Of a stretch of DNA of 26,039 nucleotides, positions 3,722 to 23,064 are shown piece after piece (position 1 is the first letter of the stretch; each line of letters begins with the position of its first letter). This DNA comes from a virus. Its lineage: Duplodnaviria; Heunggongvirae; Uroviricota; Caudoviricetes. The notes below the pieces were generated by a model. The model was not told where the DNA came from and ran no database searches. It worked only from the letters and a program-made list of their open reading frames with translations. The stretch spans positions 1 through 26,039 of the IMG/VR virus record IMGVR_UViG_2690315742_000005. One strand, written 5' to 3'. Both the position numbers and the translations under genes were made by a program.

Positions 3722-3745
3722 AAAAAAGGCCGCATTAAGGCGGCC
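3722..3745 (-). terminator. rho-independent terminator candidate downstream of the 3765..4361 gene
   Basis: Minus-strand hairpin GGCCGCC-TTAAT-GCGGCC followed by TTTTTT, 20 bp after the stop of the 3765..4361 ORF. Confidence 0.5.
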
Positions 3746-3764
3746 TTGGTAAGGTATAGTTTTT

Positions 3765-4361
3765 TTAAGATAAACTTTGATTGATATACTCATGACACCC
3801 AAAAATAAAGGCGTTTTGTGCATCAATAAATGACTTTTTTTCTTCCGGAGTAAAATACCCTTTTGTAAAACATACTTTTAGCGCTTTTTGAAGATCTGCC
3901 GTCAGGGTTATCAACTTACAACCTTCCTCATCAGGCCTTATTAATAGAAGTAATTTATTTTTACTTATTTCAGCGGCCTTTATTGGAACTTGAATCTCCT
4001 CAGGGAAAACACCCTTAGCCAATATATCCATATTCTTATTTCCGACCAGATGCCATTGCTCAAATGTGCTGGCCAACATAATTACGTCTGTCACATGCTC
4101 AGCGCCAGCAAAACGTATTTGTTGCGCCAATTCTTTATTAGTATTCAAGTGAGCCTGTAATGTGGCTAAGGCAAAATTTTCTTTGATTGCCCTGTATGCA
4201 ACCCAACCAGTTATTCCTGCGGCAATAACGCCTGCAAGAGCAGTAATGAGTGTTTCAAAAGGAAAGGAAGAACTGATTTCAATTGGCGGTAATTTTTCTA
4301 TTACCAAGGTCAACTCGCCAGTAGTTTTTTCGAAAGCGTACGGTACGTTTTGCCAAGTCAT
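3765..4361 (-). CDS. hypothetical single-pass membrane protein (AT-rich cargo gene between Q and holin)
   Basis: 198-aa ORF, low GC, one predicted TM helix (LITALAGVIAAGITGWVAY) near the N-terminus, bracketed by terminator hairpins on both sides; occupies the Q-to-lysis slot. Confidence 0.55.
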   Translation of the reverse strand: MTWQNVPYAFEKTTGELTLVIEKLPPIEISSSFPFETLITALAGVIAAGITGWVAYRAIKENFALATLQAHLNTNKELAQQIRFAGAEHVTDVIMLASTFEQWHLVGNKNMDILAKGVFPEEIQVPIKAAEISKNKLLLLIRPDEEGCKLITLTADLQKALKVCFTKGYFTPEEKKSFIDAQNAFIFGCHEYINQSLS

Positions 4362-4392
4362 GAAGCCTCCTGAGTTTCAGAGGAATCATAAC

Positions 4393-4415
4393 AAAAAAAC
4401 CCGCTCAATGGCGGG
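4393..4415 (-). terminator. rho-independent terminator candidate downstream of Q (tR'-like)
   Basis: Minus-strand hairpin with CCCGC/GCGGG stem (loop ATTGAG) followed by TTTTTTT, located 50 bp after the stop of the Q-like gene. Confidence 0.5.
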
Positions 4416-4467
4416 CTCTTAATGTTGTGTTGCTCAGTTCGCTTTAACGTCCCGAGCCTACCACAAT

Positions 4468-5046
4468 TTAAGCACTTTCTTGCTCACTCTGCAACTTAAA
4501 TCTGTCGCTATTTGTGCCGAATGCGTCACAAACTGGAGCGTACAGGATCGATTCTGCAAGACTTAGCCAAGTGTCAATGCGTCGACGACAGGTGATCAGC
4601 GGCCAGTCAGGATGTTTAGCCTGCAGTTCATTGGCCATCTGCAACTTGCTCTTACGAAGACGATACCGGTCAACAATCACGCTATAGAGCGATCGGTAGT
4701 CATCATTCATCAGTACTGAAGCAATGACACCGTCCACTAACAACCCTTCTTCATCTGAACAGAACGCCAGGCCGCTTTTATTTTTGCTGTTGAGAATTTC
4801 ACGCAGGTACGCTTCAAGTTCAGGCTTGGTGATACCCGCTATCTTCATCCGGCGTAGCGCTTCATTGATAGCTGTCTTGGTGATTTTCCCGGATGCCAGA
4901 AGCTGGTTAAACATGTTTCCACCACTACCACCGCCGATATAAGACCAGCGGCCCCACATGCGCAACTTGCCTTGTATCCAGATACTTTCCAGAGTACGAA
5001 GGCGAACCATTTCACCTGATTTGCCAACTTCAGAAGGATTAATCAT
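4468..5046 (-). CDS. late-gene antitermination protein Q-like (Phage_antitermQ-like)
   Basis: 192-aa ORF; LRMWGRWS... and the SDEEGLLVDGVIASV...YRSLYSVIVDRY segment resemble the LERWGAW / DD..ICGCM...LLVDYYV pattern I recall for Q-like antiterminators; sits immediately upstream of a terminator and the lysis genes. Confidence 0.55.
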   Translation of the reverse strand: MINPSEVGKSGEMVRLRTLESIWIQGKLRMWGRWSYIGGGSGGNMFNQLLASGKITKTAINEALRRMKIAGITKPELEAYLREILNSKNKSGLAFCSDEEGLLVDGVIASVLMNDDYRSLYSVIVDRYRLRKSKLQMANELQAKHPDWPLITCRRRIDTWLSLAESILYAPVCDAFGTNSDRFKLQSEQESA

Positions 5047-9791: not shown

Positions 9792-10620
9792 GACGATGCC
9801 CTCCGCTGATATTCAGGAGACGGTGAATATGAAAATTAGCCTTATCCGCCAAACGAATACGTTCAGCCTGCAAGTTAAGAAGCGTTTCTACCAGAACCTG
9901 ATGCGCCTGCGGATCCGAAAGAGTTACCTTGCGCAGAGCACGTAGTGCAGTTGTTACATAACTGAGTTTATGTAAGTCTTCATCATTCAGACGAGTGAGG
10001 GCTGGGACAGTAGCCATGATGGCAGCCTCCTTGATCGGTGAAATACTTCCACCACCGGAAACGCCAATTTCGCTGGTGGTGAACTGAACGGGGTTGGCGT
10101 AACCGGTGATCAAGGAAACCGGCGCATCTTTCGATGCCCCCGCCCAGCCCACCATAACTTTGATGTGAGCAAATGCGGACGATAAAAAAGACGCTGGCGC
10201 GTCATATATCGCCTTGATCAGTTCCAGGACGCCAATCCCGGCACCCGCTTTATAAGGTGCCTGAACAGTGTAACGTCCCGGAATGGCAGAATCAATGTGC
10301 TGGTGGTCCTTCACACTCAACAAAATCACGCCTGAATTTCCACAAAGGACTAAAGCACTCATGCGGGTAGTCTTTGCGAAGATAGATAACGCGCTGTGTT
10401 TCTGGCTCCCAACGAATAACATGGACATAAAGCCCTCTTCCGTCACGAAACCAGCGGTTAAGTTCCTGCACAACTCGCCCCCCACAGTCAGGTAAAGTTC
10501 TCTGTGGTTACTTACAGCCAGGTGATTTGGTAATCTGCATTCATGCCGTAACAACAGGTGTTCAGCGACGCTGACCACCAGCTGTTGCGACAAACGGTTA
10601 TTTGCCGTTAAACTGTTCAT
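9784..10620 (-). CDS. hypothetical protein (early operon, unknown function)
   Basis: 278-aa ORF in operon context between the cII-position gene and the replication gene; Gly-rich stretches (GWAGASKD, GVSGGGS) but no confident family assignment. Confidence 0.5.
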   Translation of the reverse strand: MNSLTANNRLSQQLVVSVAEHLLLRHECRLPNHLAVSNHRELYLTVGGELCRNLTAGFVTEEGFMSMLFVGSQKHSALSIFAKTTRMSALVLCGNSGVILLSVKDHQHIDSAIPGRYTVQAPYKAGAGIGVLELIKAIYDAPASFLSSAFAHIKVMVGWAGASKDAPVSLITGYANPVQFTTSEIGVSGGGSISPIKEAAIMATVPALTRLNDEDLHKLSYVTTALRALRKVTLSDPQAHQVLVETLLNLQAERIRLADKANFHIHRLLNISGGHRHA

Positions 10621-11502: not shown

Positions 11503-12177
11503 ATGAAAACAATCCATGACATCCGGCGGTCTAACGCCAGAAAACTGAGAGATGGTGTTGGCGGAAATTCATCCTTTGCCACCATGATTGATCGCGAGCC
11601 AACCCAAACCAGCAGGTTTATGGGGGATGGCGCTACTAAAAATATCGGTGACAGCATGGCACGGCACATCGAAAAATGTTTCGACCTGCCTGTCGGATGG
11701 CTTGATCAAGAACACCAGACAACGAACATCACAAAAAAACCTGATGTTTCAATCACTAACAAACAAATAACGTTAGTCCCTGTCATATCATGGGTACAGG
11801 CCGGAGCATGGAAAGAAGTTGGCTATTCTGAGGTTGATTTGAGCACAGCAGAAACTTATCCCTGCCCTGTACCCTGTGGCGAAATGACTTATATCTTGCG
11901 GGTGATTGGTGATTCAATGATTGATGAGTACCGCCCTGGAGACATGATTTTTGTTGATCCCGAAGTCCCTGCCTGCCACGGTGACGACGTTATTGCATTG
12001 ATGCACGATACAGGCGAAACTACCTTCAAGCGATTGATAGAAGATGGAACACAGCGTTATCTCAAAGCATTAAACCCAAACTGGCCTGAGCCTTACATTA
12101 AGATTAACGGTAATTGCTCTATAATTGGTACAGTGATTTTCTCGGGAAAACCAAGAAGATACACAATAAAGGCCTAA
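11503..12177 (+). CDS. CI-like prophage repressor (HTH plus S24 LexA-like peptidase domain)
   Basis: 224-aa ORF; C-terminal region VISWVQAGAW...VIGDSMIDEYRPGDMIFVD...FKRL carries the Ala-Gly cleavage site and Ser/Lys dyad pattern of S24 peptidases; divergent from the cro-like gene. Confidence 0.85.
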   Translation: MKTIHDIRRSNARKLRDGVGGNSSFATMIDREPTQTSRFMGDGATKNIGDSMARHIEKCFDLPVGWLDQEHQTTNITKKPDVSITNKQITLVPVISWVQAGAWKEVGYSEVDLSTAETYPCPVPCGEMTYILRVIGDSMIDEYRPGDMIFVDPEVPACHGDDVIALMHDTGETTFKRLIEDGTQRYLKALNPNWPEPYIKINGNCSIIGTVIFSGKPRRYTIKA

Positions 12178-12195
12178 TCAATATTTATGAACCTG

Positions 12196-12222
12196 CTTCG
12201 GCAGGTTTTTTTATACTTGACA
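12196..12222 (+). terminator. rho-independent terminator after the repressor gene
   Basis: Hairpin AACCTGC-TTCG-GCAGGTT followed by TTTTTTTAT, 19 bp after the cI-like stop. Confidence 0.65.
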
Positions 12223-12921
12223 ATGTACCCATGAGATACATAATGTATCCAAAAGAAACATGAGGCAGGCAAGATTCAAACAAAATTTGGTTGTAACACG
12301 GCGTATGGCACATGCGTCGTTAGCGGTCTGGGGACGTTAAAGGGGACAATCCACTCCTTGCTCGGGCAAACAAACCAGGTAGCCGGAATGTGCAAGTCAA
12401 TGATGATGCTGATAAGACGCCTAACCAGCGTGGCGATCCGGTTTGACGCCTGGGAAGAGACCAGGGTGCAACGATGAGGGCATTTATGGAGCCGCGACAA
12501 AGTGTGGTGCCGTAACTGGCTAAGTGCTCTCAGCGTTGTGGTCATCCGCGAAATGGCGCGGCGGTAAGTATGGCTGGGTTACTCTTTCCCCGTTGAGGAC
12601 ACCGGATTGTCAGGTTGACCATACGCCTGAGTGACAACCCCACCACAACAGCCACTGCTTTGGCGGTACCAGTTTGTACACTTGCTTCCGGCTGGTACCG
12701 CTCTTTTTACAAAACAGAGAAGAGCATCACCGGACGACGGGCTCATAACCCAATCCATCCGGGCGGCGGTCACCGCAGGTGTTCTTCTCTGTTTTGTGGA
12801 GAAACTAACCGCCCCTGCGGGGGCATCTATTGAAACGTAATTGCTTAATAATCGCCGGATGGCGAGGGCTTCCTTTTCCCAAAATTCAGCGCAGTGCAGC
12901 GCATATAAAGTGGAGAACGAA

Positions 12922-13458
12922 ATGTCATTTATTAAAACTTTTTCCGGGAAGCATTTTTATTATGACAAGATAAATAAAGACGACATCGTTATTAACGATA
13001 TCGCGGTTTCCCTTTCAAATATCTGTCGCTTTGCTGGTCATCTTTCACACTTCTACAGCGTCGCCCAACATGCGGTGCTTTGCAGCCAGCTGGTACCGCA
13101 GGAATTTGCTTTTGAAGCGTTAATGCATGATGCAACAGAAGCGTATTGCCAGGACATCCCGGCTCCACTGAAACGCCTTCTTCCTGACTATAAACGGATG
13201 GAAGAAAAAATAGACGCCGTAATCCGTGAGAAATACGGGTTACCCCCGGTTATGAGTACACCCGTGAAATATGCCGATCTCATCATGCTGGCAACCGAAC
13301 GCCGCGATCTCGGGCTTGATGATGGCTCTTTCTGGCCTGTGCTGGAAGGTATCCCGGCAACAGAGATGTTCAACGTGATTCCACTGGCTCCAGGCCATGC
13401 CTACGGGATGTTTATGGAACGCTTTAACGAATTATCGGAGTTACGCAAATGCGCATGA
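12922..13458 (+). CDS. HD-domain phosphohydrolase (YfbR-like 5'-deoxynucleotidase-like)
   Basis: ORF 12841..13458; start placed at ATG 12922 (GGAGAA RBS 6 nt upstream). The H..(H) ... HD pattern (AQHAVL ... LMHDATEAY ... PAPLK) parallels YfbR (EHSLQVAMVAH ... MYHDASEVLTGDLPTPVK) as I recall it. Confidence 0.65.
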   Translation: MSFIKTFSGKHFYYDKINKDDIVINDIAVSLSNICRFAGHLSHFYSVAQHAVLCSQLVPQEFAFEALMHDATEAYCQDIPAPLKRLLPDYKRMEEKIDAVIREKYGLPPVMSTPVKYADLIMLATERRDLGLDDGSFWPVLEGIPATEMFNVIPLAPGHAYGMFMERFNELSELRKCA

Positions 13459-13811
13459 ATGTTTTCGAAATGGAAGGGTTTCTTCGCGGGAAATGTGTAC
13501 CGCGAGATCTGAAAGTGAATGAAACAGATGCTGAATACCTGGTACGTAAATTCGATGCGCTTGAAGCTAAATGTGCAGCACTGGAAAACAAAGTAATACC
13601 AGTGTCAGCTGAACTGCCGCCAGCAAATGAAAGTGTTCTGTTATTTGATGCTAATGGAGAAGGCTGGCTGATTGGCTGGCGTTCTCTCTGGTACACCTGG
13701 GGACAAAAAGAAACCGGAGAATGGCAGTGGACATTTCAGGTCTGGGACCTTGAAAACGTCAATATCACTCACTGGGCAGTAATGCCGAAAGCACCAGAGA
13801 CTAAGAAATGA
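13449..13811 (+). CDS. DUF551-like phage protein
   Basis: 120-aa ORF; Trp-rich C-terminal segment (GWLIGWRSLWYTWGQ...EWQWTF...HWAVMP) is reminiscent of DUF551. Confidence 0.45.
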   Translation: MRMNVFEMEGFLRGKCVPRDLKVNETDAEYLVRKFDALEAKCAALENKVIPVSAELPPANESVLLFDANGEGWLIGWRSLWYTWGQKETGEWQWTFQVWDLENVNITHWAVMPKAPETKK

Positions 13812-14023
13812 GCGTAATAAAAACTCATACAGGAATTGTTATCACTCGAGACGGTGAAAAGCGGATGAAATTACATTCGACTGAAACGTCCTGGGTTGCC
13901 GGACGTTGTGAATCCTACGACAAAAAGACTGGTTACCGTTGGGGGGCGCCAAACATGCGCCGCCGTCTGCTCCTGGACAGCATCAGGCCAATTAAACAGG
14001 TAGCAACCAGAGAACAAAATTAA
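13808..14023 (+). CDS. hypothetical small protein
   Basis: 71-aa ORF, ATGA-coupled to the upstream gene; no motif recognised. Confidence 0.4.
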   Translation: MSVIKTHTGIVITRDGEKRMKLHSTETSWVAGRCESYDKKTGYRWGAPNMRRRLLLDSIRPIKQVATREQN

Positions 14024-14082: not shown

Positions 14083-14289
14083 ATGCTGAACCTCGATTGT
14101 GTTCCTATCTCAACTTATTGCAAAGAAACTGGCGAAACTCCTGAAGCAATAAACAAACGTGTACAGCGCGGTGTTTGGCGTGAAGGTGTTCAGGTTTTAA
14201 AGGTTGAAGGCGTTAAGGAGAGGTGGATTGATCTTAGTGAGGTTGCAAAATGGGCCAGACAAAACTGCTCAAACTACCGCGCGGCGTAA
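14083..14289 (+). CDS. excisionase (Xis-like)
   Basis: ORF 14071..14289; likely start ATG 14083 (GGAGAA RBS upstream). Small basic protein with winged-helix-like KRVQRGVWREGV segment, immediately upstream of and overlapping the integrase gene. Confidence 0.6.
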   Translation: MLNLDCVPISTYCKETGETPEAINKRVQRGVWREGVQVLKVEGVKERWIDLSEVAKWARQNCSNYRAA

Positions 14290-15416
14290 CAATCAGGAAA
14301 CACCGCCAGGGAGAAACGATCAATATAACTTTCACCTACAAAGGAGTTAGATGTCGTGAGCCGCTTTCCAATCTAGAAGTAACACCAAAGAACATTAAAT
14401 ACGCCGAGCGTACACTCGGCGAAATCCATAATAAGATCGAAAGGGGAACATTCATTTATGCAGAATATTTTCCCCGTTCTGCTCGTTTGAAAATTTTTGG
14501 TAATGCTGCTGCAGGCAAAACGGTAAAGATGTACCTGGACGAATATCTTGAAATCTGCGAAACAAGAAAACTTTCACCCTCTACGATTGGTGGCTATAAA
14601 AAATGCCGTAGTGCGTTAGCCTCACTTCACATTTGCCCTGCAAGTGAATTAACACCAGCAACCCTGAAAGCGTGGATTCAAAGCCAGAAAACAACCTTAA
14701 AAACCATTCGCAACCAGTTATCTTTCCTGCGGTCAGCACTTGATGAAGCCGTGACCGATGGGGTACTTCAAATTAACCCCGTATCGTTAGTAACAGCTTC
14801 GCGCTACCAAAGTGATAAGTCAGAAGCAGAAAGCAGCTATGTGGTTGATCCGCTATCACCAGCAGAAGTTGATGCATTATTAGCAGCAGCCGGAAACAAA
14901 CAATGGGAAAATCTGTTCCGGTTCGCCATACATACAGGCCTGCGTAGTTCTGAATTATGTGCCCTTCGATGGCGTGATATCGACTTTGTTGGAAAAACTG
15001 CCCATGTCCAGAGCGCAAGTGTTGTCGGTGTTATCAAAGGGACAAAGACAAAAGCAGGTACTCGTAAAGTTGAACTGACAGAAGAGGCAATGTTGGCGCT
15101 GATAAATCAGAAGCCATTTACATTCATGAAGGATGCTACTGTCTTTGAAGACCCAAAGACCAATAAGCCTTGGGCAAGTGCTGATGCAATAAGGAAAAAA
15201 GCATGGGTGCCAACATTACGAAAAGCAGGTATTCGTTACAGAAACCCATATCAAACCAGGCATACATTCGCCACCCGCCATATCAGCCGGGGAGCGAACC
15301 TGTTTTGGCTTGCAGCTCAAATGGGGCATAAAGGGCCTGAGATGCTTTTCAGGCACTATGGTCGATATCTCAAAGAATACGACGGAAAAAGCTCCATCAA
15401 ATACATTATACAATGA
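14250..15416 (+). CDS. tyrosine integrase (lambda Int family)
   Basis: 388-aa ORF; N-terminal arm-binding-like domain; C-terminal catalytic region with conserved R (TGLRSSELCALRW), HTFATRHISRGANL and GHKGPEMLFRHYGRYL (H-x-x-R ... Y). Confidence 0.9.
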   Translation: MGQTKLLKLPRGVTIRKHRQGETINITFTYKGVRCREPLSNLEVTPKNIKYAERTLGEIHNKIERGTFIYAEYFPRSARLKIFGNAAAGKTVKMYLDEYLEICETRKLSPSTIGGYKKCRSALASLHICPASELTPATLKAWIQSQKTTLKTIRNQLSFLRSALDEAVTDGVLQINPVSLVTASRYQSDKSEAESSYVVDPLSPAEVDALLAAAGNKQWENLFRFAIHTGLRSSELCALRWRDIDFVGKTAHVQSASVVGVIKGTKTKAGTRKVELTEEAMLALINQKPFTFMKDATVFEDPKTNKPWASADAIRKKAWVPTLRKAGIRYRNPYQTRHTFATRHISRGANLFWLAAQMGHKGPEMLFRHYGRYLKEYDGKSSIKYIIQ

Positions 15417-15428
15417 TTATGGCGGCAT

Positions 15429-16058
15429 TTATTGCCGCCCACATAATTCATTATGCCATTTATCCAAGTAACAATCCAATTGTTTTAATGTTTTCAATAC
15501 ATATACAGGCTTACGTGGCGGATGATTTTTTTGAAAAGAATCATATAAATGCATTATGAAATCGACACAAGCACTAGATACATTCTGAGCGCGAAAAACC
15601 CTATATGACTTATTAAAACAATATGATTTCTCACATTCCATAGTAGCTTCATCTATAATATTAGAAAAATACGAAATTGTTATTTTTATCCCCCTCTCAT
15701 CGAGAAGATTAATGTATTTATTTATTTGTATGGCTTTTCCATGAATTGCCGTTAAATATATTTTCGCCGACTGAGTATGCAATCCATTAGAGTTCTTAAA
15801 ATTTTTTTTCTTAAATGGATTAGAATCTGGTGGTGTTGACTTATTAACCCAGTAATCCAGAGACAAATCTGATATTTCGTTTAAAATTTTAGCAATCGCA
15901 TCTATAATCGATTTAGATTCAGAGCGAGTAGCAATCTTCAGTGAATTATTGTAAGTAACAAACCATCCAATAAACACTAAGATAATACTCACAACACTAA
16001 ACATCCATGCGTAAGTGGACACCCCTGCAAGGGTGTCCTTAATATCAACGGTGTTCAA
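15429..16058 (-). CDS. hypothetical membrane protein (third gene of AT-rich cargo operon); start uncertain
   Basis: ORF 15429..16142; predicted TM helix (MFSVVSIILVFIGWFVTY) then Lys/Asn-rich soluble domain; very low GC. Candidate starts: TTG at 16058 (GGAG 5 nt upstream, 1 nt after the upstream stop), ATG at 16004, or ATG at 16142 (would overlap the upstream gene by 83 nt). The 3' end overlaps a hairpin (15423..15441) shared with the convergent int gene. Confidence 0.5.
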   Translation of the reverse strand: MNTVDIKDTLAGVSTYAWMFSVVSIILVFIGWFVTYNNSLKIATRSESKSIIDAIAKILNEISDLSLDYWVNKSTPPDSNPFKKKNFKNSNGLHTQSAKIYLTAIHGKAIQINKYINLLDERGIKITISYFSNIIDEATMECEKSYCFNKSYRVFRAQNVSSACVDFIMHLYDSFQKNHPPRKPVYVLKTLKQLDCYLDKWHNELCGRQ

Positions 16059-16059
16059 A

Positions 16060-16401
16060 TCAACTCCTTTGGAAAGGCTTCCTTTCTGGATTAGCCATTT
16101 CAATATATCTAAAAATTTGATCTTTATAGAACGGCAAATCACTTTTTATAATTAGTTTTGCCTTAATGTCAGCCTTAGGTACACCTTCCTTCCTAACAAG
16201 CCCTCCAAAGGCCTCCTCTAGAAACGAAGAACCAATCCCATGATTTATACCCGTAAAATCTACGACAACCTCACGCTCACCAGATTTTAATGCAGGAACC
16301 AGAAAGTCCTTACGAAAACGCTCAGCACTGTTCGGGCTGTCAGACTTGAACCTTCCAAATGGCATCTTTGAGAAATCCCTTGCTATGACGATGTTAACCA
16401 T
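16060..16401 (-). CDS. STAS-like (anti-sigma-factor-antagonist-like) small protein
   Basis: 113-aa ORF; EVVVDFTGINHGIGSSFLEEAFGGL matches the STAS/SpoIIAA-like pattern (hydrophobic strand, D-F/L-S/T-G-V, then SSGL/SSFL helix); start overlaps the upstream gene stop by 8 nt. Confidence 0.5.
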   Translation of the reverse strand: MVNIVIARDFSKMPFGRFKSDSPNSAERFRKDFLVPALKSGEREVVVDFTGINHGIGSSFLEEAFGGLVRKEGVPKADIKAKLIIKSDLPFYKDQIFRYIEMANPERKPFQRS

Positions 16402-17317
16402 CTTCTCCTCTCCTCGGAACTAATGACCATTCAATCAATGTTCCCGGCATGTACTCAGGTATCCACTCGCATTTGGGAACCTCATTTCTTGAATTATAGC
16501 TGTACTTAACATTCCCTGTGAACACCAAAAGTGATTCTGAATTCGCACAGCCAGACCCTATAGGTCTCTTTATATCCTCAGAACCATTACCACGTCCAGC
16601 GTTAACATATCTGGACTGTCCTCCTGTCAGGGCTGTTGACACAGATGTCACGTCGTCATACCCAGTAAACAACGGAGAGGCTGAAGTAAATGATTTATGT
16701 ATGCCAAGCCCAAGATCATAAATAATAAAGACAACCTTGTCTGTGTCAGGGTTGTACCAACAACTCTGCCACCATCGTTTCCCTTGCATATGCTCTATAG
16801 CACCAGCAAAGTCTGGATGTTCATATGCATGATATGAAACATTCAGCATTGCCTCACTAAGGGCTGAGGAGACCAAAAGATATTGCTCAAATGTGAGAAT
16901 TGCTTTTGAATCAATAAATTCCATCGTTTTAGCCCAATGTTCATACGGTTCCACAGCAGACTGAAAGTACCTGCGTTCCTTAGTAAGAACATCTAATTTA
17001 TCAACTGTATTTGCCATTAGAGCAATCGATAACCCCGTCCCAACAATATATCGATGCCCATACGGATTATTTTCTTTTTTCGGCCAAATGAATCGAAGAC
17101 TACTTGTGCCGAATGCCATAAAATAAGCCCTACTGATGATAGCAAACAACCTTACGCTAGCTGCAGCACCTGCATATTCTACTGTCGAAAAGTCTATAAC
17201 CACTTGTCCAGATGCTCTCGCAAGGGTGTTATCAACTGAGTTCAAAAACTTAGCTGTAACACGGCGATCAGAATCATTATAAAGGCACAATCTTTTTGGG
17301 GAAATCAACAGTTCCAT
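16394..17317 (-). CDS. GHKL/HATPase_c-type ATPase or Ser-kinase-like protein with possible N-terminal STAS-like region
   Basis: 307-aa ORF with GAGGTG RBS 6 nt upstream. Candidate Bergerat-fold motifs: N-box-like LSEAMLNVSYHAYEH, G1-like FIIYDLGLGIHK (D-x-G-x-G), G2-like NAGRGNGSE. N-terminal QVVIDFSTVEYAGAAASVRLF resembles a STAS-like strand-helix. Low GC. Confidence 0.5.
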   Translation of the reverse strand: MELLISPKRLCLYNDSDRRVTAKFLNSVDNTLARASGQVVIDFSTVEYAGAAASVRLFAIISRAYFMAFGTSSLRFIWPKKENNPYGHRYIVGTGLSIALMANTVDKLDVLTKERRYFQSAVEPYEHWAKTMEFIDSKAILTFEQYLLVSSALSEAMLNVSYHAYEHPDFAGAIEHMQGKRWWQSCWYNPDTDKVVFIIYDLGLGIHKSFTSASPLFTGYDDVTSVSTALTGGQSRYVNAGRGNGSEDIKRPIGSGCANSESLLVFTGNVKYSYNSRNEVPKCEWIPEYMPGTLIEWSLVPRRGEDG

Positions 17318-17458
17318 GGCGACACCTCAGCCAAATCTGTCTAGTCAAAAATGAGCAAAATAAATTACTATAAAATAATGACGAAGTGCACGTTTTTGAT
17401 ACGCAAAGATTGCAGGAAGAAATTAAACTTTATTTTTCATACACATAAATTCAATCAT

Positions 17459-17488
17459 ACGCGGGTTCAACTCCCGCCAGCTCCACCA
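17459..17488 (+). other. attachment-site core: 30-bp copy of the 3' end of tmRNA (ssrA), ending CCA
   Basis: ACGCGGGTTCAACTCCCGCCAGCTCCACCA matches the 3' terminus of E. coli tmRNA as I recall it (...GGACGCGGGUUCAACUCCCGCCAGCUCCACCA); upstream sequence is AT-rich and not tmRNA-like, so this is a partial copy as generated by site-specific integration. Confidence 0.6.
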
Positions 17489-17498
17489 AATAAATCAA

Positions 17499-17531
17499 GG
17501 GGTTACGTGAAAGCGTAGCCCCTTTTTCTTT
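17499..17531 (+). terminator. rho-independent terminator candidate immediately after the tmRNA 3'-end copy
   Basis: Hairpin GGGGTTACG-TGAAA-GCGTAGCCCC (one G-U pair) followed by TTTTTCTTT. Confidence 0.45.
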
Positions 17532-17611
17532 GGTAGTGGCGGCAAAATGGCGACAGACTTTTGCGTCCATCTTGCCTGTCGCCATCTTGAAATCATGCAA
17601 AGAGGTTTCAC

Positions 17612-18094
17612 ATGGAAGAACTTCACTTTGTTTACATCAATGCAAATGGTCGTATCGCTGTTCACTCTATACAGAGCATCAGTTATAGCGAAAATCATAT
17701 ACAGGGCATTTGTAAGAACACCGATCGAATAAAAACCTTCCGAAAAGACCGCATTCTTAAACAGTACGATTCACCAGAACAAGCCATTCAGGAATGCGCG
17801 TCATTCCTCCCCGAAAGCTACTCACATCTCACTAAGCAGTCTGGTCCGAAAAAAAATACATTCGATGTGTGTTTCACCGGATTTAAGAAAGCAGATAAAG
17901 AAAGATTGGTTGATAAGGCGAATGAACAAGGATTAACGGTAAGAACCTCTATAACCCAAAGCCTTCAGATGCTCTGTTGCGGTTACAATGCAGGCCCATC
18001 AAAAGTATCGGCAGCCAGGATGAAAGGCACAATCATCATAGATGAGCCTGGCTTTATACATTTTCTTGAAACGGGTGAGATTCCAGATGAATAA
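17612..18094 (+). CDS. BRCT-domain protein (cargo gene between att core and ogr)
   Basis: 160-aa ORF with AAGAGG RBS; C-terminal 80 aa (FDVCFTGFKKADKERLVDKANEQGLTVRTSITQSLQMLCCGYNAGPSKVSAARMKGTIIIDEPGFIHFL) follows the BRCT pattern seen in NAD-ligase C-termini (F-TG, G-V..S.t....l..G.naGsK..kA...g..ii.E..F); N-terminal 75 aa unassigned; AT-rich. Confidence 0.5.
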   Translation: MEELHFVYINANGRIAVHSIQSISYSENHIQGICKNTDRIKTFRKDRILKQYDSPEQAIQECASFLPESYSHLTKQSGPKKNTFDVCFTGFKKADKERLVDKANEQGLTVRTSITQSLQMLCCGYNAGPSKVSAARMKGTIIIDEPGFIHFLETGEIPDE

Positions 18095-18120
18095 AAACCT
18101 GCCGTAGCAGGTTCTCTTTC

Positions 18121-18339
18121 TCAAAAATTCATATGCCCCTGACCACCTGGCAATGGATGTGGAGGAGCAGTAGCAATCAGTGCGGGTGTCACAATAAACC
18201 GGACCACTGTTTCATGAGTAACAAAAGTGCTCCCGCAGTTAATATTTTGGCACTGGCAGTAACGCTCTTTGGTGCTTTCAGTTACTTGAAAACTGCTCCT
18301 TGTGTGTGCCGCATGACCACACTTTGGACAATTCATCAT
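18121..18339 (-). CDS. ogr: Ogr/Delta-type zinc-finger late transcription activator
   Basis: ORF 18121..18384; from the internal Met (MMNCPKCGHAAHTRSS...TKERYCQCQNINCGSTF...PHPLPGGQ) it is 72 aa and matches P2 Ogr (CPLCQHAAH...TKERYHQCQNVNCSATF...PHPLPSGQ) including the four zinc-ligand Cys. Confidence 0.85.
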   Translation of the reverse strand: MMNCPKCGHAAHTRSSFQVTESTKERYCQCQNINCGSTFVTHETVVRFIVTPALIATAPPHPLPGGQGHMNF

Positions 18340-18407
18340 ATCCAGATCCCTACCTTTGCTATCAGAATCATTGTAATGATACACAAAATATCAATATTGA
18401 GAACACT

Positions 18408-19508
18408 TTATTCCATTTCAAGATCATCAATCTTCACTTCGAGTTCAATACTGGTTGTAAAACCGTTATCCGGGCTGACGGTATGTGTCAGAGTCGTAAT
18501 GGTCCATTCCGCATCATCTATCGGCTGTTTAAAACCACTGACCTTCACAGGCATTTCCGTGTAGAGATCTGCCCGCCCTTCTGCCAGTTGTAGCGAAAAT
18601 GACGCAACGCCGCGTTGCAGGCGTTCCCACTGCATTTTCGCCGCTCGTTCGGCGTTGCTCCGGTTGGCATAAGTGCGATTAAGTACCAGCACGTTTTCAT
18701 CCGTACCCACCAGGTAATCGCCCTGCTTCGCTTCTGGCTCTTTCTTCTGCTTCTTAGTTCTGCGCTTACGCTTCACCGTGGTGCTTTCTTTCTTCGCAGG
18801 TTCGCGGGTATGCAACCAGCTGGCAATTACGCCCGTGTAGGCTCCGCGATCTGCCAGGGTAAATCGGTGACTGTCGCCGTCCTTGCGTGTGATAGTGATC
18901 ACTGGCAGAGGTTTACCAGTGGCGCTTTTGCCCTGCCCCTGCCGGATGAATAACAGATTGCCATTTTTCACCGACGCGATGGCACCGTACTGTCGCGCCA
19001 GCCGCATCAGAAAACTGCCGTCACTCTCATTAGTCTGGTCTATATGCTCCACGGGCTTATCCGACAGGTCTTTACCCAGTGCCATCTTCAGCTTGTGCCG
19101 CGCGGCTATTTCCTTCACCACTTCCCCGACGGTGGTCTTATGCCACGATTTTTCACGGCGGGTATTCAGCGTTTCCCGAAAATCAGCACTTCGCGCCCGG
19201 ATAGTCAGGCGGTCCGGTGCGCCAGTGTGTTCAATCTCGTCCACTGTGAATGCCCCTTTCGGGAAAAGCGGCTGCCCCTTCCAGCCCAGCGCCAGCGTAA
19301 TAACCGCACCACGGCGCGGCAGCACGATTTTTCCGTCAGCGTCATCCAGCTCCAGATCAAGCTGGTCCGCTTCAAAGCCCCGGTTATCCGTCAGCGTCAA
19401 ACTCATCAGGCGGTTATCCAGCACAGTGGTGATATCCCTGCCCTCAATACTGATGCTGAATGCGGGAGTTTTGTTGCCTTTGTTAAGCAGTTCAGAGCTG
19501 AAATTCAC
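18408..19508 (-). CDS. D: P2-like tail protein D
   Basis: 366-aa ORF directly downstream of U and upstream of ogr, the conserved P2 order FI-FII-E-T-U-D-ogr; size and character fit gpD. Confidence 0.8.
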   Translation of the reverse strand: MNFSSELLNKGNKTPAFSISIEGRDITTVLDNRLMSLTLTDNRGFEADQLDLELDDADGKIVLPRRGAVITLALGWKGQPLFPKGAFTVDEIEHTGAPDRLTIRARSADFRETLNTRREKSWHKTTVGEVVKEIAARHKLKMALGKDLSDKPVEHIDQTNESDGSFLMRLARQYGAIASVKNGNLLFIRQGQGKSATGKPLPVITITRKDGDSHRFTLADRGAYTGVIASWLHTREPAKKESTTVKRKRRTKKQKKEPEAKQGDYLVGTDENVLVLNRTYANRSNAERAAKMQWERLQRGVASFSLQLAEGRADLYTEMPVKVSGFKQPIDDAEWTITTLTHTVSPDNGFTTSIELEVKIDDLEME

Positions 19509-19990
19509 GACAGCAGCCCTCCCACCGTTTTACTGATATCGCTTAAGGCAGACGTTGCCGTGTCCTGCAAATTATTCAGTTGCGCACTGAGATCACCGAA
19601 CATATCGGACAGGGATTCATCCACTCGTTTGAGCGACAGGGTGAACTCAATCCGGCGCGGCATACCGTCGCGGAAAAACTCCGTTTTAGTCTGATTCAGT
19701 CCCTCAATCACATACATGCCGTAAATCGTGCCGCTGCCTTCAATCAGGGGCCATGCTTTCCCCTGTTCTGCCATCTGCTCCAGTGCCAGCAACGACAGCC
19801 TGCCGCCTGTTATTTCCGGCATAAGAACACCGGAAAGCGTCAGCATGTCGTTTTCCGGTCCCAGAAACTGCGTGGACGGACGTCGGTTTACCCGACTGTT
19901 TGCCGCATGTCGCCAGCTGCGTTGATACTGCAGTTCCTGATACGGAACGGTGCGCAGCATAAACACGTACAATCCCAGCACCATCATCAT
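19505..19990 (-). CDS. U: P2-like tail protein U
   Basis: 161-aa ORF between T and D with 4-bp overlaps; size matches P2 gpU. Confidence 0.8.
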   Translation of the reverse strand: MMMVLGLYVFMLRTVPYQELQYQRSWRHAANSRVNRRPSTQFLGPENDMLTLSGVLMPEITGGRLSLLALEQMAEQGKAWPLIEGSGTIYGMYVIEGLNQTKTEFFRDGMPRRIEFTLSLKRVDESLSDMFGDLSAQLNNLQDTATSALSDISKTVGGLLS

Positions 19991-22900
19991 GCGTCGTATC
20001 CCCCCTGATCGCTGTAGTTACTCCTGGCTTTTGCCTTCAGCCTGCGTTCACGTTCATCAAGCTGGCGTGCCACCTCCCGCGCAATATCCTGCGCACTTTG
20101 TCCTGGCTGCGTCTGAATGATGATCTGCGTCGGTGCCTCAATCCGTTGAACGAGCGGCACAGTGGCTGCGCGACTCACAATTGCTTCTCCACCTTTCGCG
20201 GGAAGTGCCAAAGGGTGCAACGGTGGAAGCTCTGCTGGCGCGGCAGCAACGCCCATCATTCCGGCAACAACGGCAGCCAGTGCAGCTGTATTTCTCCGGC
20301 TGGTCACATTTGCCGGGCCGTTAACAATTTCCGGCCCGTTTTCACCGACGATGCCAAACTGCCCGCGCGGGATATACCCACCGCTGTCATACATCCCCGC
20401 AAAGCCATATCCCCATGATGGAAAACCACCCGATGGCATCATCACTTTACCGTCTGCATTCACCGTCGCAGGTTGCTGACGCGTCACGCTTTCCGGCAGT
20501 TTTGCCTTTGCGGCCTCTTTACTGACAATGCCGAGCTTCTCCAGCAACCAGGAAACGCCGGATTTCAGGGAGTCCAGCGGATGCATGACCATATTCAGCC
20601 CTTCCGCCAGTGCCTCCCCGAATCGCCGCCCCATTGCCGCTGCGCTCTGCAGTTCGGCAGAGGTCGACTTAACGGGCGTCAGCAGATCAGTAAACCAGCC
20701 CCACAGCGCCTGCACTTTGTCGCCAATCCACTGGAACACGGGCTTAAGCGGTTCGAACGCTGCACTGATGGGACCTGCCGCCGCTTTGAATCCTTCCACC
20801 ACGCCACCGAGAAATGCGGTGATGGGTTGCCAGTATTTCCAGACAACCAGCGCCACGCCCGCCAGTGCAGTAACCACAAGACCTATCGGACTGAGCAGAG
20901 CACCTAACAGACCAGATATGGCATACAGGGCAACGCGCAGCATCGCCAGCGGGCCGGATGCGAGCACACGCAGCACCGCGCCTGCGGCAGCCAGCCCACC
21001 GCGTAGTGCTGCCAGTGGATTCATAAACATCACAGCAACAGCACGTAAACCGGATAATCCAGACCGCAAAAGTGCAACCGGCGCACCTGCTACAGTTTTC
21101 AGGACATTCCCCATCAGTGATACCGTGCGACGCAAAGACGACAACGGAGCAGTAAGTAAACCCGCTGCGTTGCCCGATGAAGCAAGCCCGCGTCGCAGCA
21201 GTGCCAGTGGTGCGCCAGCCAGCCAGGACAACGCGCTGCTGGTTCGAGTTACTGCTGCCGTAACGGAAGGTAACGTTTTGATACCCAGCACAGAGAATCC
21301 CAGACGGATCACTGCCAGCGGCCCCAGCACTGCAGCCAGCGCCACCGCTAAGGTGCCGAGGCCTACGGTAACCGCAGCCACAACAGCCACTACTTTCATC
21401 AGTGTGCCTGTCAGTTCCGGGTTAGCTTCCACCCAGCGGCGCAACGCCCCCGTGACGCTTTTCACCGTGTACAGAATATCCATCAGCGGCTGGCGCAGCG
21501 TTTCGCCCAGGCTGCTGAAGGTGTTCTGCGCTCCGGTTTTGACCAGCAACCACTGAGCAGAAAGTGAGTCTTTGTTGATGTCGGATTCTTTCTGCATCGA
21601 ACCGAGCGCATCATTGCCCGCTGTCAGTTTTAGCTGGCGCTGTAGTTCCGGCAGGTTGTTTGCCAGTTTCGCCGCGTCATCGCCAAACTCTTTACCAAAC
21701 AACATGGTCATGGCAGACAGACGCTTGTCCTGCGGCAGTGCGTTCACCTTCTCCAGTACACGCTGGATGGTTCCCATCGCATCCTTCGTCATCTGCTTTT
21801 CAATCACTTCAGGATTGAGTTTCAGCAGATTCATCCCTTCAAAGAAACTCTTGCTTTGCATGGTGGCAATGGACAATTCACGCACCATCGCGTTTGCTGC
21901 ACTGGCTGCAACCTCCGGCGCAGCGCCCAGTGTCAGAAAGGTGGAACCCAGTGCCGCCGCTTTACGATAATCCAGACGGTCAGCCACACCGCCCAGACGT
22001 TGCATCACATCAATGATGTCCGCCCCTTTCGACATGGCGTTATCATCCAGATAGTTCAGCGCATCGCCGAGCTGTTCAATATTGCGGGTAGGTATTTTGT
22101 AGAGCTGGGCGATTTTCCCCAGACTTTCTGACAGTTCATCCGCTGGCAGCTCAAAGGCTGTTGCCGCCTTTGCTGCCGTACTGGCGAAGGCCAGCAGGTC
22201 ACGTTTCTGGTCTTCCCAGCTGTCGTCAGGGTTTGCCACGTTCATGCGCGCACCACCTTCAACCAGTGCAGCGAAGTCCACCGCACCGTTTTCCATCGGC
22301 AACTGTTCGCTGGCAGCCTTGATGGCATCCTGCATTTCGTAAAAACGCGCAGTGCGGTTGCCATTATCGTCACGCAGACCATTGACCTGCTTTGCCACAC
22401 CTTTCATGGCATCTTCCATGCTGGCATAGCTTTTTACCGCCGCCATCACTGGCGCGCCCATTGCCAGCCCTGCAGCCGTGGTGGTGGCTCCGGCTCCTGC
22501 GATACGATCGCGCACTTCAAGCCGTCTTGAGTATTGTTCTCTGGCAGCGTTCATCCGTGCCTGTTGTTCACCCAGACGTTTAAGTGCTTTTTGCTGGCCC
22601 TCCAGTGCCTGCCTTGTTTCTTCAGCATTTTTCTTAAGTTCTCGCTGGGCACTACTGAGTTGCCTGGTATCAATCCCTGATTCTTTAAGTGCCTGACGTT
22701 GTCTCTGGACCGCCCCCAACAAGCCGTTATAGGTCTGCTGAAGTTCCTGTACTCGTGTTTTGGCCTGACTGAATAACTTTGCCTGCGCGGCGGTTGGCCT
22801 GTTAGTGGCAGCAAATTGTGTGGCGAGTTTTGCCGCCTCTTCGCGGGCTGCGTTCAGGTTGTTGGCTGTTATGGCTAGTTGCGAGCGCGTCTTGCGAAAC

Positions 22901-23064
22901 TCATCAATTCTGCCAGCCTGCTTATTCAGTTCTTTGAGGCTGTTTCTGGTATTCTGAATTGCGCCAGCCAGCTCTTTCGAACTGGCCTGTGCAGCACGGA
23001 ATGGGCGGGTGAGTTTGTCAACCGCATTAAGAATGACCTGCAGACGCAGGTTGTTATCACTCAT
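19987..23064 (-). CDS. T: tail tape measure protein (gpT-like)
   Basis: 1025-aa ORF; N-terminal coiled-coil (Ala/Gln/Arg-rich) region, central hydrophobic Ala/Leu/Gly-rich repeats, C-terminal Gly-rich part; follows E/E' as in P2. Confidence 0.9.
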   Translation of the reverse strand: MSDNNLRLQVILNAVDKLTRPFRAAQASSKELAGAIQNTRNSLKELNKQAGRIDEFRKTRSQLAITANNLNAAREEAAKLATQFAATNRPTAAQAKLFSQAKTRVQELQQTYNGLLGAVQRQRQALKESGIDTRQLSSAQRELKKNAEETRQALEGQQKALKRLGEQQARMNAAREQYSRRLEVRDRIAGAGATTTAAGLAMGAPVMAAVKSYASMEDAMKGVAKQVNGLRDDNGNRTARFYEMQDAIKAASEQLPMENGAVDFAALVEGGARMNVANPDDSWEDQKRDLLAFASTAAKAATAFELPADELSESLGKIAQLYKIPTRNIEQLGDALNYLDDNAMSKGADIIDVMQRLGGVADRLDYRKAAALGSTFLTLGAAPEVAASAANAMVRELSIATMQSKSFFEGMNLLKLNPEVIEKQMTKDAMGTIQRVLEKVNALPQDKRLSAMTMLFGKEFGDDAAKLANNLPELQRQLKLTAGNDALGSMQKESDINKDSLSAQWLLVKTGAQNTFSSLGETLRQPLMDILYTVKSVTGALRRWVEANPELTGTLMKVVAVVAAVTVGLGTLAVALAAVLGPLAVIRLGFSVLGIKTLPSVTAAVTRTSSALSWLAGAPLALLRRGLASSGNAAGLLTAPLSSLRRTVSLMGNVLKTVAGAPVALLRSGLSGLRAVAVMFMNPLAALRGGLAAAGAVLRVLASGPLAMLRVALYAISGLLGALLSPIGLVVTALAGVALVVWKYWQPITAFLGGVVEGFKAAAGPISAAFEPLKPVFQWIGDKVQALWGWFTDLLTPVKSTSAELQSAAAMGRRFGEALAEGLNMVMHPLDSLKSGVSWLLEKLGIVSKEAAKAKLPESVTRQQPATVNADGKVMMPSGGFPSWGYGFAGMYDSGGYIPRGQFGIVGENGPEIVNGPANVTSRRNTAALAAVVAGMMGVAAAPAELPPLHPLALPAKGGEAIVSRAATVPLVQRIEAPTQIIIQTQPGQSAQDIAREVARQLDERERRLKAKARSNYSDQGGYDA

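Follow-up and report, generated by a model that had tools for sequence, protein, structure and literature searches.

An intact yfdR gene and a structured leader RNA in the early-left region of a prophage from a 26,039-nt caudoviral record

What does the gene at positions 12922-13458 of the virus record IMGVR_UViG_2690315742_000005 (Caudoviricetes, IMG/VR) do, lying as it does between the immunity genes and the integrase gene of a prophage? The window considered here is the whole stretch of 26,039 nt, and the coordinates of its open reading frames (ORFs) come from a mechanical ORF list. The initial annotation had described the product as an HD-domain, YfbR-like nucleotide phosphohydrolase that could either reshape nucleotide pools during induction or degrade nucleotide-based immune signals. 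The protein family and the operon context described there agree with our results, but that description overlooked that this is a named gene, yfdR, and that its product has been linked to the initiator protein DnaA. The explanation that we favour, to which we assign a probability of about 0.85, is that the gene is an orthologue of yfdR whose product would be an early HD-domain (deoxy)nucleoside monophosphate ((d)NMP) phosphatase that also binds domain I of DnaA and damps host initiation.

The identification of the gene rests on near-identity with its counterpart in Escherichia coli K-12. The ORF is intact, running on the plus strand from an ATG at 12922 to a TGA at 13458 (178 codons, 178 aa), and its product is identical to K-12 YfdR (b2361, NP_416862) at 177 of 178 positions, without gaps and over the same length (E = 8e-139), the conservative replacement E170D being the sole change. 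The downstream YfdS is similarly close to K-12 YfdS (114/118 identical), and in the nearest genomes (98.7% identity over 2.2 kb) RefSeq labels the same coding sequence (CDS) 'yfdR: 5'-deoxynucleotidase'. Synteny is also kept, with an overlapping yfdS next in line within a prophage early-left region that closes with the integrase. Judged by sequence, the ORF is thus the prophage gene yfdR, orthologue of E. coli K-12 b2361. The start of the gene had been said to overlap the preceding non-coding region, a remark without substance, as an ordinary Shine-Dalgarno sequence and ATG follow a 745-bp untranslated stretch. A longer ORF beginning at a TTG (12841) was rejected because K-12 YfdR and all RefSeq homologues begin at the ATG at 12922 and a GGAG is present in front of it.

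The gene is already known, since it carries a name in K-12 and both an enzymatic annotation and a study of its binding to DnaA have been published, and it is very common: yfdR was found in 2,948 of 5,426 complete E. coli genomes (at least 80% coverage), with a maximum of four copies per genome, and the yfdR region also occurs in lambdoid and Shiga toxin (Stx)-converting phages, in SfV-like phages and in cdtI, 2H10 and Ayreon. Relatives of the protein were detected by tblastn in 333 phage records, including lytic jumbo phages, and the hosts of these phages include Bacillus, Caulobacter, Rhizobium, Vibrio and Pseudomonas. The profile of PHROG 318, 'deoxyribonucleoside 5' monophosphate phosphatase', matches the entire protein (residues 1-178 on positions 97-274 of 296, E = 4e-110). 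The closest known parallel is the K-12 prophage CPS-53 (KpLE1), in which the same coupled pair yfdR-yfdS has the corresponding place, lying between immunity genes and integrase gene. The two prophages differ in that the one described here lacks the upstream genes yfdP and yfdQ and the downstream gene yfdT, in that its immunity region is e14/SfV-like, and in that it looks far less degraded than CPS-53.

The assignment of the product to the HD-domain, YfbR-like phosphohydrolases proved correct at the superfamily level, both in the PHROG 318 match and in the residues themselves. The H..H / HD motif reported for it does exist: the signature comprises H50 (codon 13069-13071, in VAQH), H69-D70 (13126-13131) and E73 (in MHDATE), D78 (in QD) and D119 (13276-13278, in KYAD). 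In an alignment of 35 YfdR homologues that are 66-99% identical, no variation is seen at H50, H69 or D119, and D70 reaches at least 90% conservation, E73 and D78 being likewise invariant or at least 90% conserved. The protein therefore displays the H...HD...D pattern that defines the HD superfamily (Aravind & Koonin 1998). His50, His69, Asp70 and Asp119 would serve as the metal ligands, and Glu73, Asp78 and Arg36 would line the nucleotide pocket.

The resemblance to YfbR itself holds in part. The HD core of YfdR aligns with H68-D69-E72-D77 of YfbR, and the structures superpose; similarity is restricted to that core, however, both in BLASTP (E = 9e-5 over 40 residues) and in hhalign (columns 61-96 only). 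YfdR also falls below the curated cut-offs of Pfam PF12917 YfbR-like (24.3 bits against 25.9) and of NCBIfam NF003009 5'-deoxynucleotidase (19.9 bits against 122). Status as a YfbR equivalog was rejected on these grounds, and since its scores lie under the curated cut-offs we treat YfdR as a distant YfbR-like relative. E. coli YfbR (PDB 2PAQ/2PAR) shares about 18% identity with YfdR, with similarity over only about 40 residues, and it is encoded by a housekeeping chromosomal gene, whereas yfdR is a prophage gene. The closest solved structure is that of Agrobacterium tumefaciens Atu1052 (PDB 2GZ4; phmmer E = 1e-13), a chromosomal and uncharacterised structural-genomics protein that has small insertions when compared with YfdR. 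From the alignment of the 35 homologues, AlphaFold produced a model (pLDDT, the predicted local distance difference test, 86; pTM, the predicted template modelling score, 0.84) with an all-alpha HD fold that superposes with the YfbR structure, and Foldseek paired it with 2gz4 at a template modelling score of 0.78-0.80. According to this model, YfdR is a small all-helical metal-dependent phosphohydrolase of the HD superfamily, which probably works like the small HD phosphohydrolases of the YfbR/DatZ/OxsA type and would form a subfamily of its own together with Atu1052.

Among these enzymes, DatZ of cyanophage S-2L (PDB 6ZPA) is a small phage HD phosphohydrolase of similar size whose metal ligands H34/H66/D67/D119 correspond to H50/H69/D70/D119 of YfdR. 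DatZ is a dATP triphosphohydrolase belonging to that phage's 2-aminoadenine (Z-genome) system (PMC8065100). In the comparison of YfdR with the DatZ type, a weak match to phrog_7076 (E = 1e-4) was seen. A role of this kind for YfdR, as a triphosphohydrolase that removes a specific deoxynucleoside triphosphate (dNTP) in the manner of DatZ or OxsA, appears highly improbable. The strong family match is to the monophosphatase PHROG (E = 4e-110), and the activity described for YfdR is on monophosphates (PMC4776307). DatZ moreover belongs to the Z-genome system, and no base-modification enzyme was matched among the scanned ORFs of the window, whose left half lies outside that annotation.

The same structural comparison bears on the proposal that the enzyme degrades immune signals, that is, that it acts in counter-defence on the cyclic or linear nucleotides of CBASS, Pycsar, Thoeris or type III CRISPR systems. 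Its nearest structural relatives are mono- and triphosphohydrolases (YfbR/DatZ/OxsA), which act on dNMPs or dNTPs, and not diesterases of the HD-GYP or PgpH type; Acb1 and Apyc1 have different folds, 2H and MBL. YfdR gave no match in PADLOC, a resource that covers defence and not counter-defence proteins, and a literature search gave no link between YfdR and immune signals. The gene is also present in over half of E. coli genomes, even in the long-degraded prophage CPS-53. The proposal is therefore unsupported, and we consider it scarcely credible.

What is known about the function of the protein comes from K-12. YfdR has an HD domain and was described as a structural homologue of YfbR by Noguchi and Katayama 2016 (PMC4776307), who showed that the purified protein binds DnaA specifically, Phe46 in domain I of DnaA being important for the interaction, and that it is a moderate competitor of DiaA and DnaB in this binding. 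Multicopy yfdQRS or yfdQRT inhibits initiation at oriC (PMC4776307), and the YfdR-DnaA points have been restated in a review (PMC5448010). Regarding catalysis, the 2016 report describes activity on nucleoside 5'-monophosphates by a weak nucleotidase, with nucleotide affinities far below YfbR's (citing Zimmerman 2008), and calls the function elusive (PMC4776307). On this basis YfdR would be an early protein that damps initiation of the host chromosome and/or frees DnaB, and a low-affinity (d)NMP phosphatase in a secondary role.

Several observations weigh against this explanation. The K-12 authors themselves state that an overexpression artefact cannot be excluded, and deletion of yfdQRST had no effect on initiation (PMC4776307). 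The initiation phenotype in K-12 needed yfdQ, which this prophage lacks. In addition, yfdR has been reported to encode a cytidine monophosphate (CMP) phosphatase, and its deletion in an engineered K-12 strain gave no gain in CMP yield (PMC10870394). Binding to an E. coli-type DnaA is also unlikely to be the conserved function of homologues carried by phages of Bacillus, Caulobacter, Vibrio and other hosts, and this spread over phages of unrelated hosts suggests that the enzymatic activity is ancestral.

Some of these points lend themselves to a different interpretation, in which YfdR is purely a nucleotide-pool enzyme, that is, an early phage dNMP phosphatase or nucleotidase that disposes of or redirects deoxynucleotides on induction, the binding to DnaA being an artefact of overexpression. 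The names given to the family by PHROG and NCBI, the conservation of a complete set of HD catalytic residues, the distribution of the family over phages of unrelated hosts, lytic jumbo phages included, and the concession made by the K-12 authors all speak in its favour. It has to contend with the low nucleotide affinities and the elusive function described in the K-12 report, with the absence of a phenotype for the yfdR deletion in the CMP-production strain (PMC10870394), and with the specific, Phe46-dependent binding of the purified protein to DnaA (PMC4776307). We regard a pure pool enzyme as possible, with odds that fall short of even, and continue to favour an orthologue of YfdR that combines (d)NMP phosphatase activity with binding to DnaA.

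How far the K-12 findings can be carried over to this prophage depends on the genes that accompany yfdR. The published phenotype required Q+R+S or Q+R+T, and the full yfdQ-R-S-T set is not present here, yfdP and yfdQ being absent and the ORF that follows yfdS not being YfdT. Since yfdQ was required for the phenotype in vivo, this prophage may show only the activities of YfdR alone, and the full inhibition seen in K-12 may not operate here. A yfdR-yfdS pair without yfdQ or yfdT offers in turn a natural test of YfdR acting alone. The gene itself has small discovery value; what is gained is a corrected picture, in which the protein is YfdR and not YfbR, has a link to DnaA, and lacks support for a role in immune signalling.

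The location of the gene between immunity and integration functions, which had been recognised from the start, is borne out by a repressor on one side and an integrase on the other, and the tight coupling proposed for the downstream genes is seen in two successive overlaps. The genes of this region and the ribosome-binding site of yfdR are as follows.

11503-12177, plus strand: cI-type (LexA/S24) prophage repressor, ymfK-like, marking the immunity region (Pfam Peptidase_S24, E = 1.5e-26)
12912-12915, plus strand: Shine-Dalgarno sequence GGAG, 6 nt 5' of the yfdR ATG, from direct reading of the sequence
12922-13458, plus strand: yfdR, HD-domain 5'-deoxynucleotidase and DnaA-binding protein
13449-13811, plus strand: yfdS (DUF551), translationally coupled to yfdR (Pfam DUF551 at 21.3 bits, cut-off 22)
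13808-14023, plus strand: ORF of 71 aa coupled to yfdS (RefSeq: hypothetical protein)
14083-14289, plus strand: ORF of 68 aa, a RefSeq CDS in the closest genome, overlapping the start of the integrase gene
14250-15416, plus strand: tyrosine integrase at the end of the operon (Pfam Arm-DNA-bind_2, E = 9.5e-24; Phage_integrase, E = 9.5e-17)

The repressor is named 'ymfK: LexA family protein' in RefSeq. The stop of yfdR and the start of yfdS overlap by 10 nt (13449-13458), and the stop of yfdS overlaps the next ATG by 4 nt (ATGA, 13808-13811). Neither the 71-aa ORF nor the 68-aa ORF matched a Pfam family. Identity of the 71-aa ORF with YfdT was rejected in view of its lack of similarity to K-12 YfdT, and homology of the 68-aa ORF to TorI was likewise rejected, no similarity having been found; by its position, the 68-aa ORF occupies the place expected for an excisionase and is a candidate for that function. 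The operon would thus read, in order, repressor gene, terminator, pL-like promoter, structured leader, yfdR, yfdS, the 71-aa ORF, the small ORF and int, with yfdR as its first protein-coding gene. Expression of yfdR is expected on inactivation of the repressor, given this first place in the early-left operon.

A second question raised by the locus concerns the 745-bp gap between the repressor gene and yfdR, which holds no credible ORF and is empty in the PGAP annotation. Positions 12250-12830 within it have 55-56% GC, compared with about 40% in the flanks, and the leader considered as RNA folds with a z-score of -4.5 relative to shuffled sequences. The following features were located in it.

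12189-12208, plus strand: intrinsic terminator-like hairpin with a T-run at the end of the repressor transcript (terminator scan; a terminator in the annotation of phage Ayreon)
12217-12244, plus strand: sigma-70 promoter-like site TTGACA-16-CATAAT, 11/12 matches (promoter scan; a promoter in the Ayreon annotation)
12294-12472, plus strand: conserved structured RNA motif forming the core of the operon leader (covariance model R1, 144.7 bits), with a 3' helix reaching to about 12545
12663-12708, plus strand: perfect 10-bp hairpin, GCGGTACCAG/CTGGTACCGC (12663-12701), followed by TCTTTTT (inverted repeat I6 and sequence)
12709-12797, plus strand: long hairpin formed by an inverted repeat with 25-nt arms that are 84% complementary (inverted repeat I1)
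12810-12825, plus strand: GC-rich hairpin at the junction of the yfdP-yfdQ cassette (BLAST breakpoints 12811-12822; junction alignment A2)

The site at 12217-12244 is the presumed early-left (pL-like) promoter of the yfdR operon. The element at 12663-12708, which lies between that promoter and yfdR, appears terminator-like; the terminator scan missed it because its loop exceeds 8 nt. The GC-rich hairpin marks the place of a 1.3-kb yfdP-yfdQ cassette (3724-5015 of the related record L002) that is found in K-12, SfV, Ayreon and many E. coli prophages and is absent here. Similar but non-identical hairpins flank the cassette in relatives, and arrangements with and without it are both found among E. 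coli genomes.

A search for distant DNA relatives resolved the leader into a mosaic of three modules that are common to different phages, referred to here as A, B and C. Module A (about 12285-12545) contains the structured RNA and is treated below. Module B (12535-12657, plus strand) is 85-88% identical to stretches of 'PPompW' Stx2a prophages and of an Actinobacillus phage that are unannotated or labelled hypothetical, and is associated with a 19-nt imperfect inverted repeat (12529-12547 and 12613-12631). Module C (12660-12822, plus strand) is common to SfV, SfIV and others, in which it lies just 5' of yfdP, and includes the hairpins at 12663-12708 and 12709-12797. Module C may be an attenuator or terminator that transcription from the early-left promoter has to read through.

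The structured RNA has a core of about 180 nt (about 180-250 nt with the 3' helix) and folds into five helices, including an H-type pseudoknot. The copies analysed were gathered with an exact 19-mer taken from the most conserved block, which retrieved at least 120 IMG/VR loci; together with loci fetched earlier, 129 copies were in hand. Covariation was tested on 27 representatives clustered at 90% identity and on 28 base pairs. In this set 96% of the cells pair and 12 of the 28 pairs change on both sides, a level of covariation that none of 500 shuffles reached. Sliding the partners lowers pairing to 28-52%; because the five-helix structure was derived by hand from the same sequences that were tested, these results are inflated, and this control in particular. 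The 19-mer is invariant by construction and is therefore silent on covariation within it. For the same reason, the alternative proposed by RNAalifold, in which GCACAT/AUGUGC replaces helix 1, cannot be judged, as its 3' strand lies inside the collecting 19-mer.

Insertions and deletions in the spacers that separate the conserved blocks have lengths that are no multiple of three, so the region is non-coding. A coding reading was rejected on this ground and on that of the compensatory changes; the small ORFs present in some phage records are not called by PGAP. The reading as a tRNA remnant was also rejected, ARAGORN having found no tRNA in the window. Rfam 15, searched with gathering and E-value thresholds, gave no relevant match for the motif, either in the window or at six related loci, and a full-text literature search for the motif sequence found nothing. 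The motif is thus apparently undescribed.

The covariance model finds a single copy of the motif in the window and none in HK022, SfV or K-12 CPS-53, and of 5,426 complete E. coli genomes 1,638 contain module A. Of the 129 copies, 46 lie within 300 nt of a tRNA gene on the same strand, 28 of them upstream of tRNA-Arg UCU and the other 18 a short way downstream of a tRNA(CAU). In P1, P7 and SJ46 module A stands directly after tRNA-Ile(CAU) and before ban, and in epsilon15-like phages (phiV10, SPN1S, BUCT711) tRNA-Arg(UCU) comes directly after it; in either case it invariably shares the strand of the tRNA and is never annotated. Among the matches listed (25), module A is likewise unannotated, the only annotated genes under the matches being the adjacent tRNA-Arg genes. 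At prophage loci without a neighbouring tRNA, the same-strand ORF that ends some 90-250 nt upstream encodes a cI-type repressor in all eight of the diverse loci tested, six of these repressors having HTH and Peptidase_S24 domains and two HTH only. The motif, which is widespread and unannotated, stands at the front of the early-left operon in many lambdoid prophages and next to tRNAs in P1-like and epsilon15-like phages.

As in the window, the motif directly follows the repressor gene at these loci, so that transcription from the early-left promoter would reach it first. It precedes a terminator-like hairpin, and there is no N-like gene there. This arrangement recalls putL of phage HK022, which is also transcribed first from the early-left promoter just past the repressor gene, ahead of terminators and without an N-like gene. 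The two differ in that the HK022 put element has about 70 nt and two stems, whereas the motif has about 180 nt and five helices including a pseudoknot, and in that HK022 carries both putL and putR whereas the motif is single-copy. Homology to put was rejected, since the 19-mer could not be matched in HK022 even with up to three mismatches allowed and covariance model R1 gives a 10-bit chance match in a tail gene. By analogy of position, the motif may be a put-like, protein-independent antiterminator; another possibility is a stable RNA made early by the phage, its ends fixed by the promoter or through tRNA processing. Confirmation of either, be it as a new antiterminator of the protein-independent kind or as a stable RNA of the phage, would be of interest to those working on phage regulation and on RNA biology.

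Two bolder readings can be set out. In an intact, inducible prophage YfdR alone, without YfdQ, might be a factor for host takeover that halts host initiation on induction through domain I of DnaA, its HD site either regulating that activity or having as substrate some nucleotide not yet recognised, for instance an immune signal. Separately, expression of yfdR to int may depend on the leader RNA as a put-like, protein-independent antiterminator or stable early RNA. We consider these readings unlikely, the one concerning the leader RNA being the more plausibly novel of the two.

Some further observations were made elsewhere in the window. Two known small RNAs lie side by side on the minus strand in the early-right region, within an ash/immunity-region gene of the annotation of relatives, namely a C4 antisense RNA (10072-10159; 82.3 bits) and the Hfq-binding RNA isrK (10184-10260; 63.2 bits), both over the Rfam gathering score. 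Directly 3' of int there is a low-GC block (about 30%; 15429-17317), whose profiled stretch (15429-16000) has 29-33% GC. After int come minus-strand ORFs of 237, 113 and 307 aa (15429-19990) that fit no clear family, and neither the 237-aa nor the 307-aa ORF has a Pfam family; the 237-aa ORF has a weak PADLOC match to '2TM effector' (E = 0.0056), and an ORF on the plus strand (17612-18094) matches PDC-S48 in PADLOC (E = 4e-7). The closest genome carries a pair of genes for an ATP-binding protein and RloB at the position of this block. The region 15429-19990 may thus be variable cargo or a defence hotspot at the end of the prophage. Beyond the integrase there is also an ORF of 1,025 aa on the minus strand (19987-23064) with a phage minor-tail domain of the tape-measure type, phage tail genes lying on the minus strand there, which suggests either a second phage-derived element abutting the prophage or an unusual gene order.
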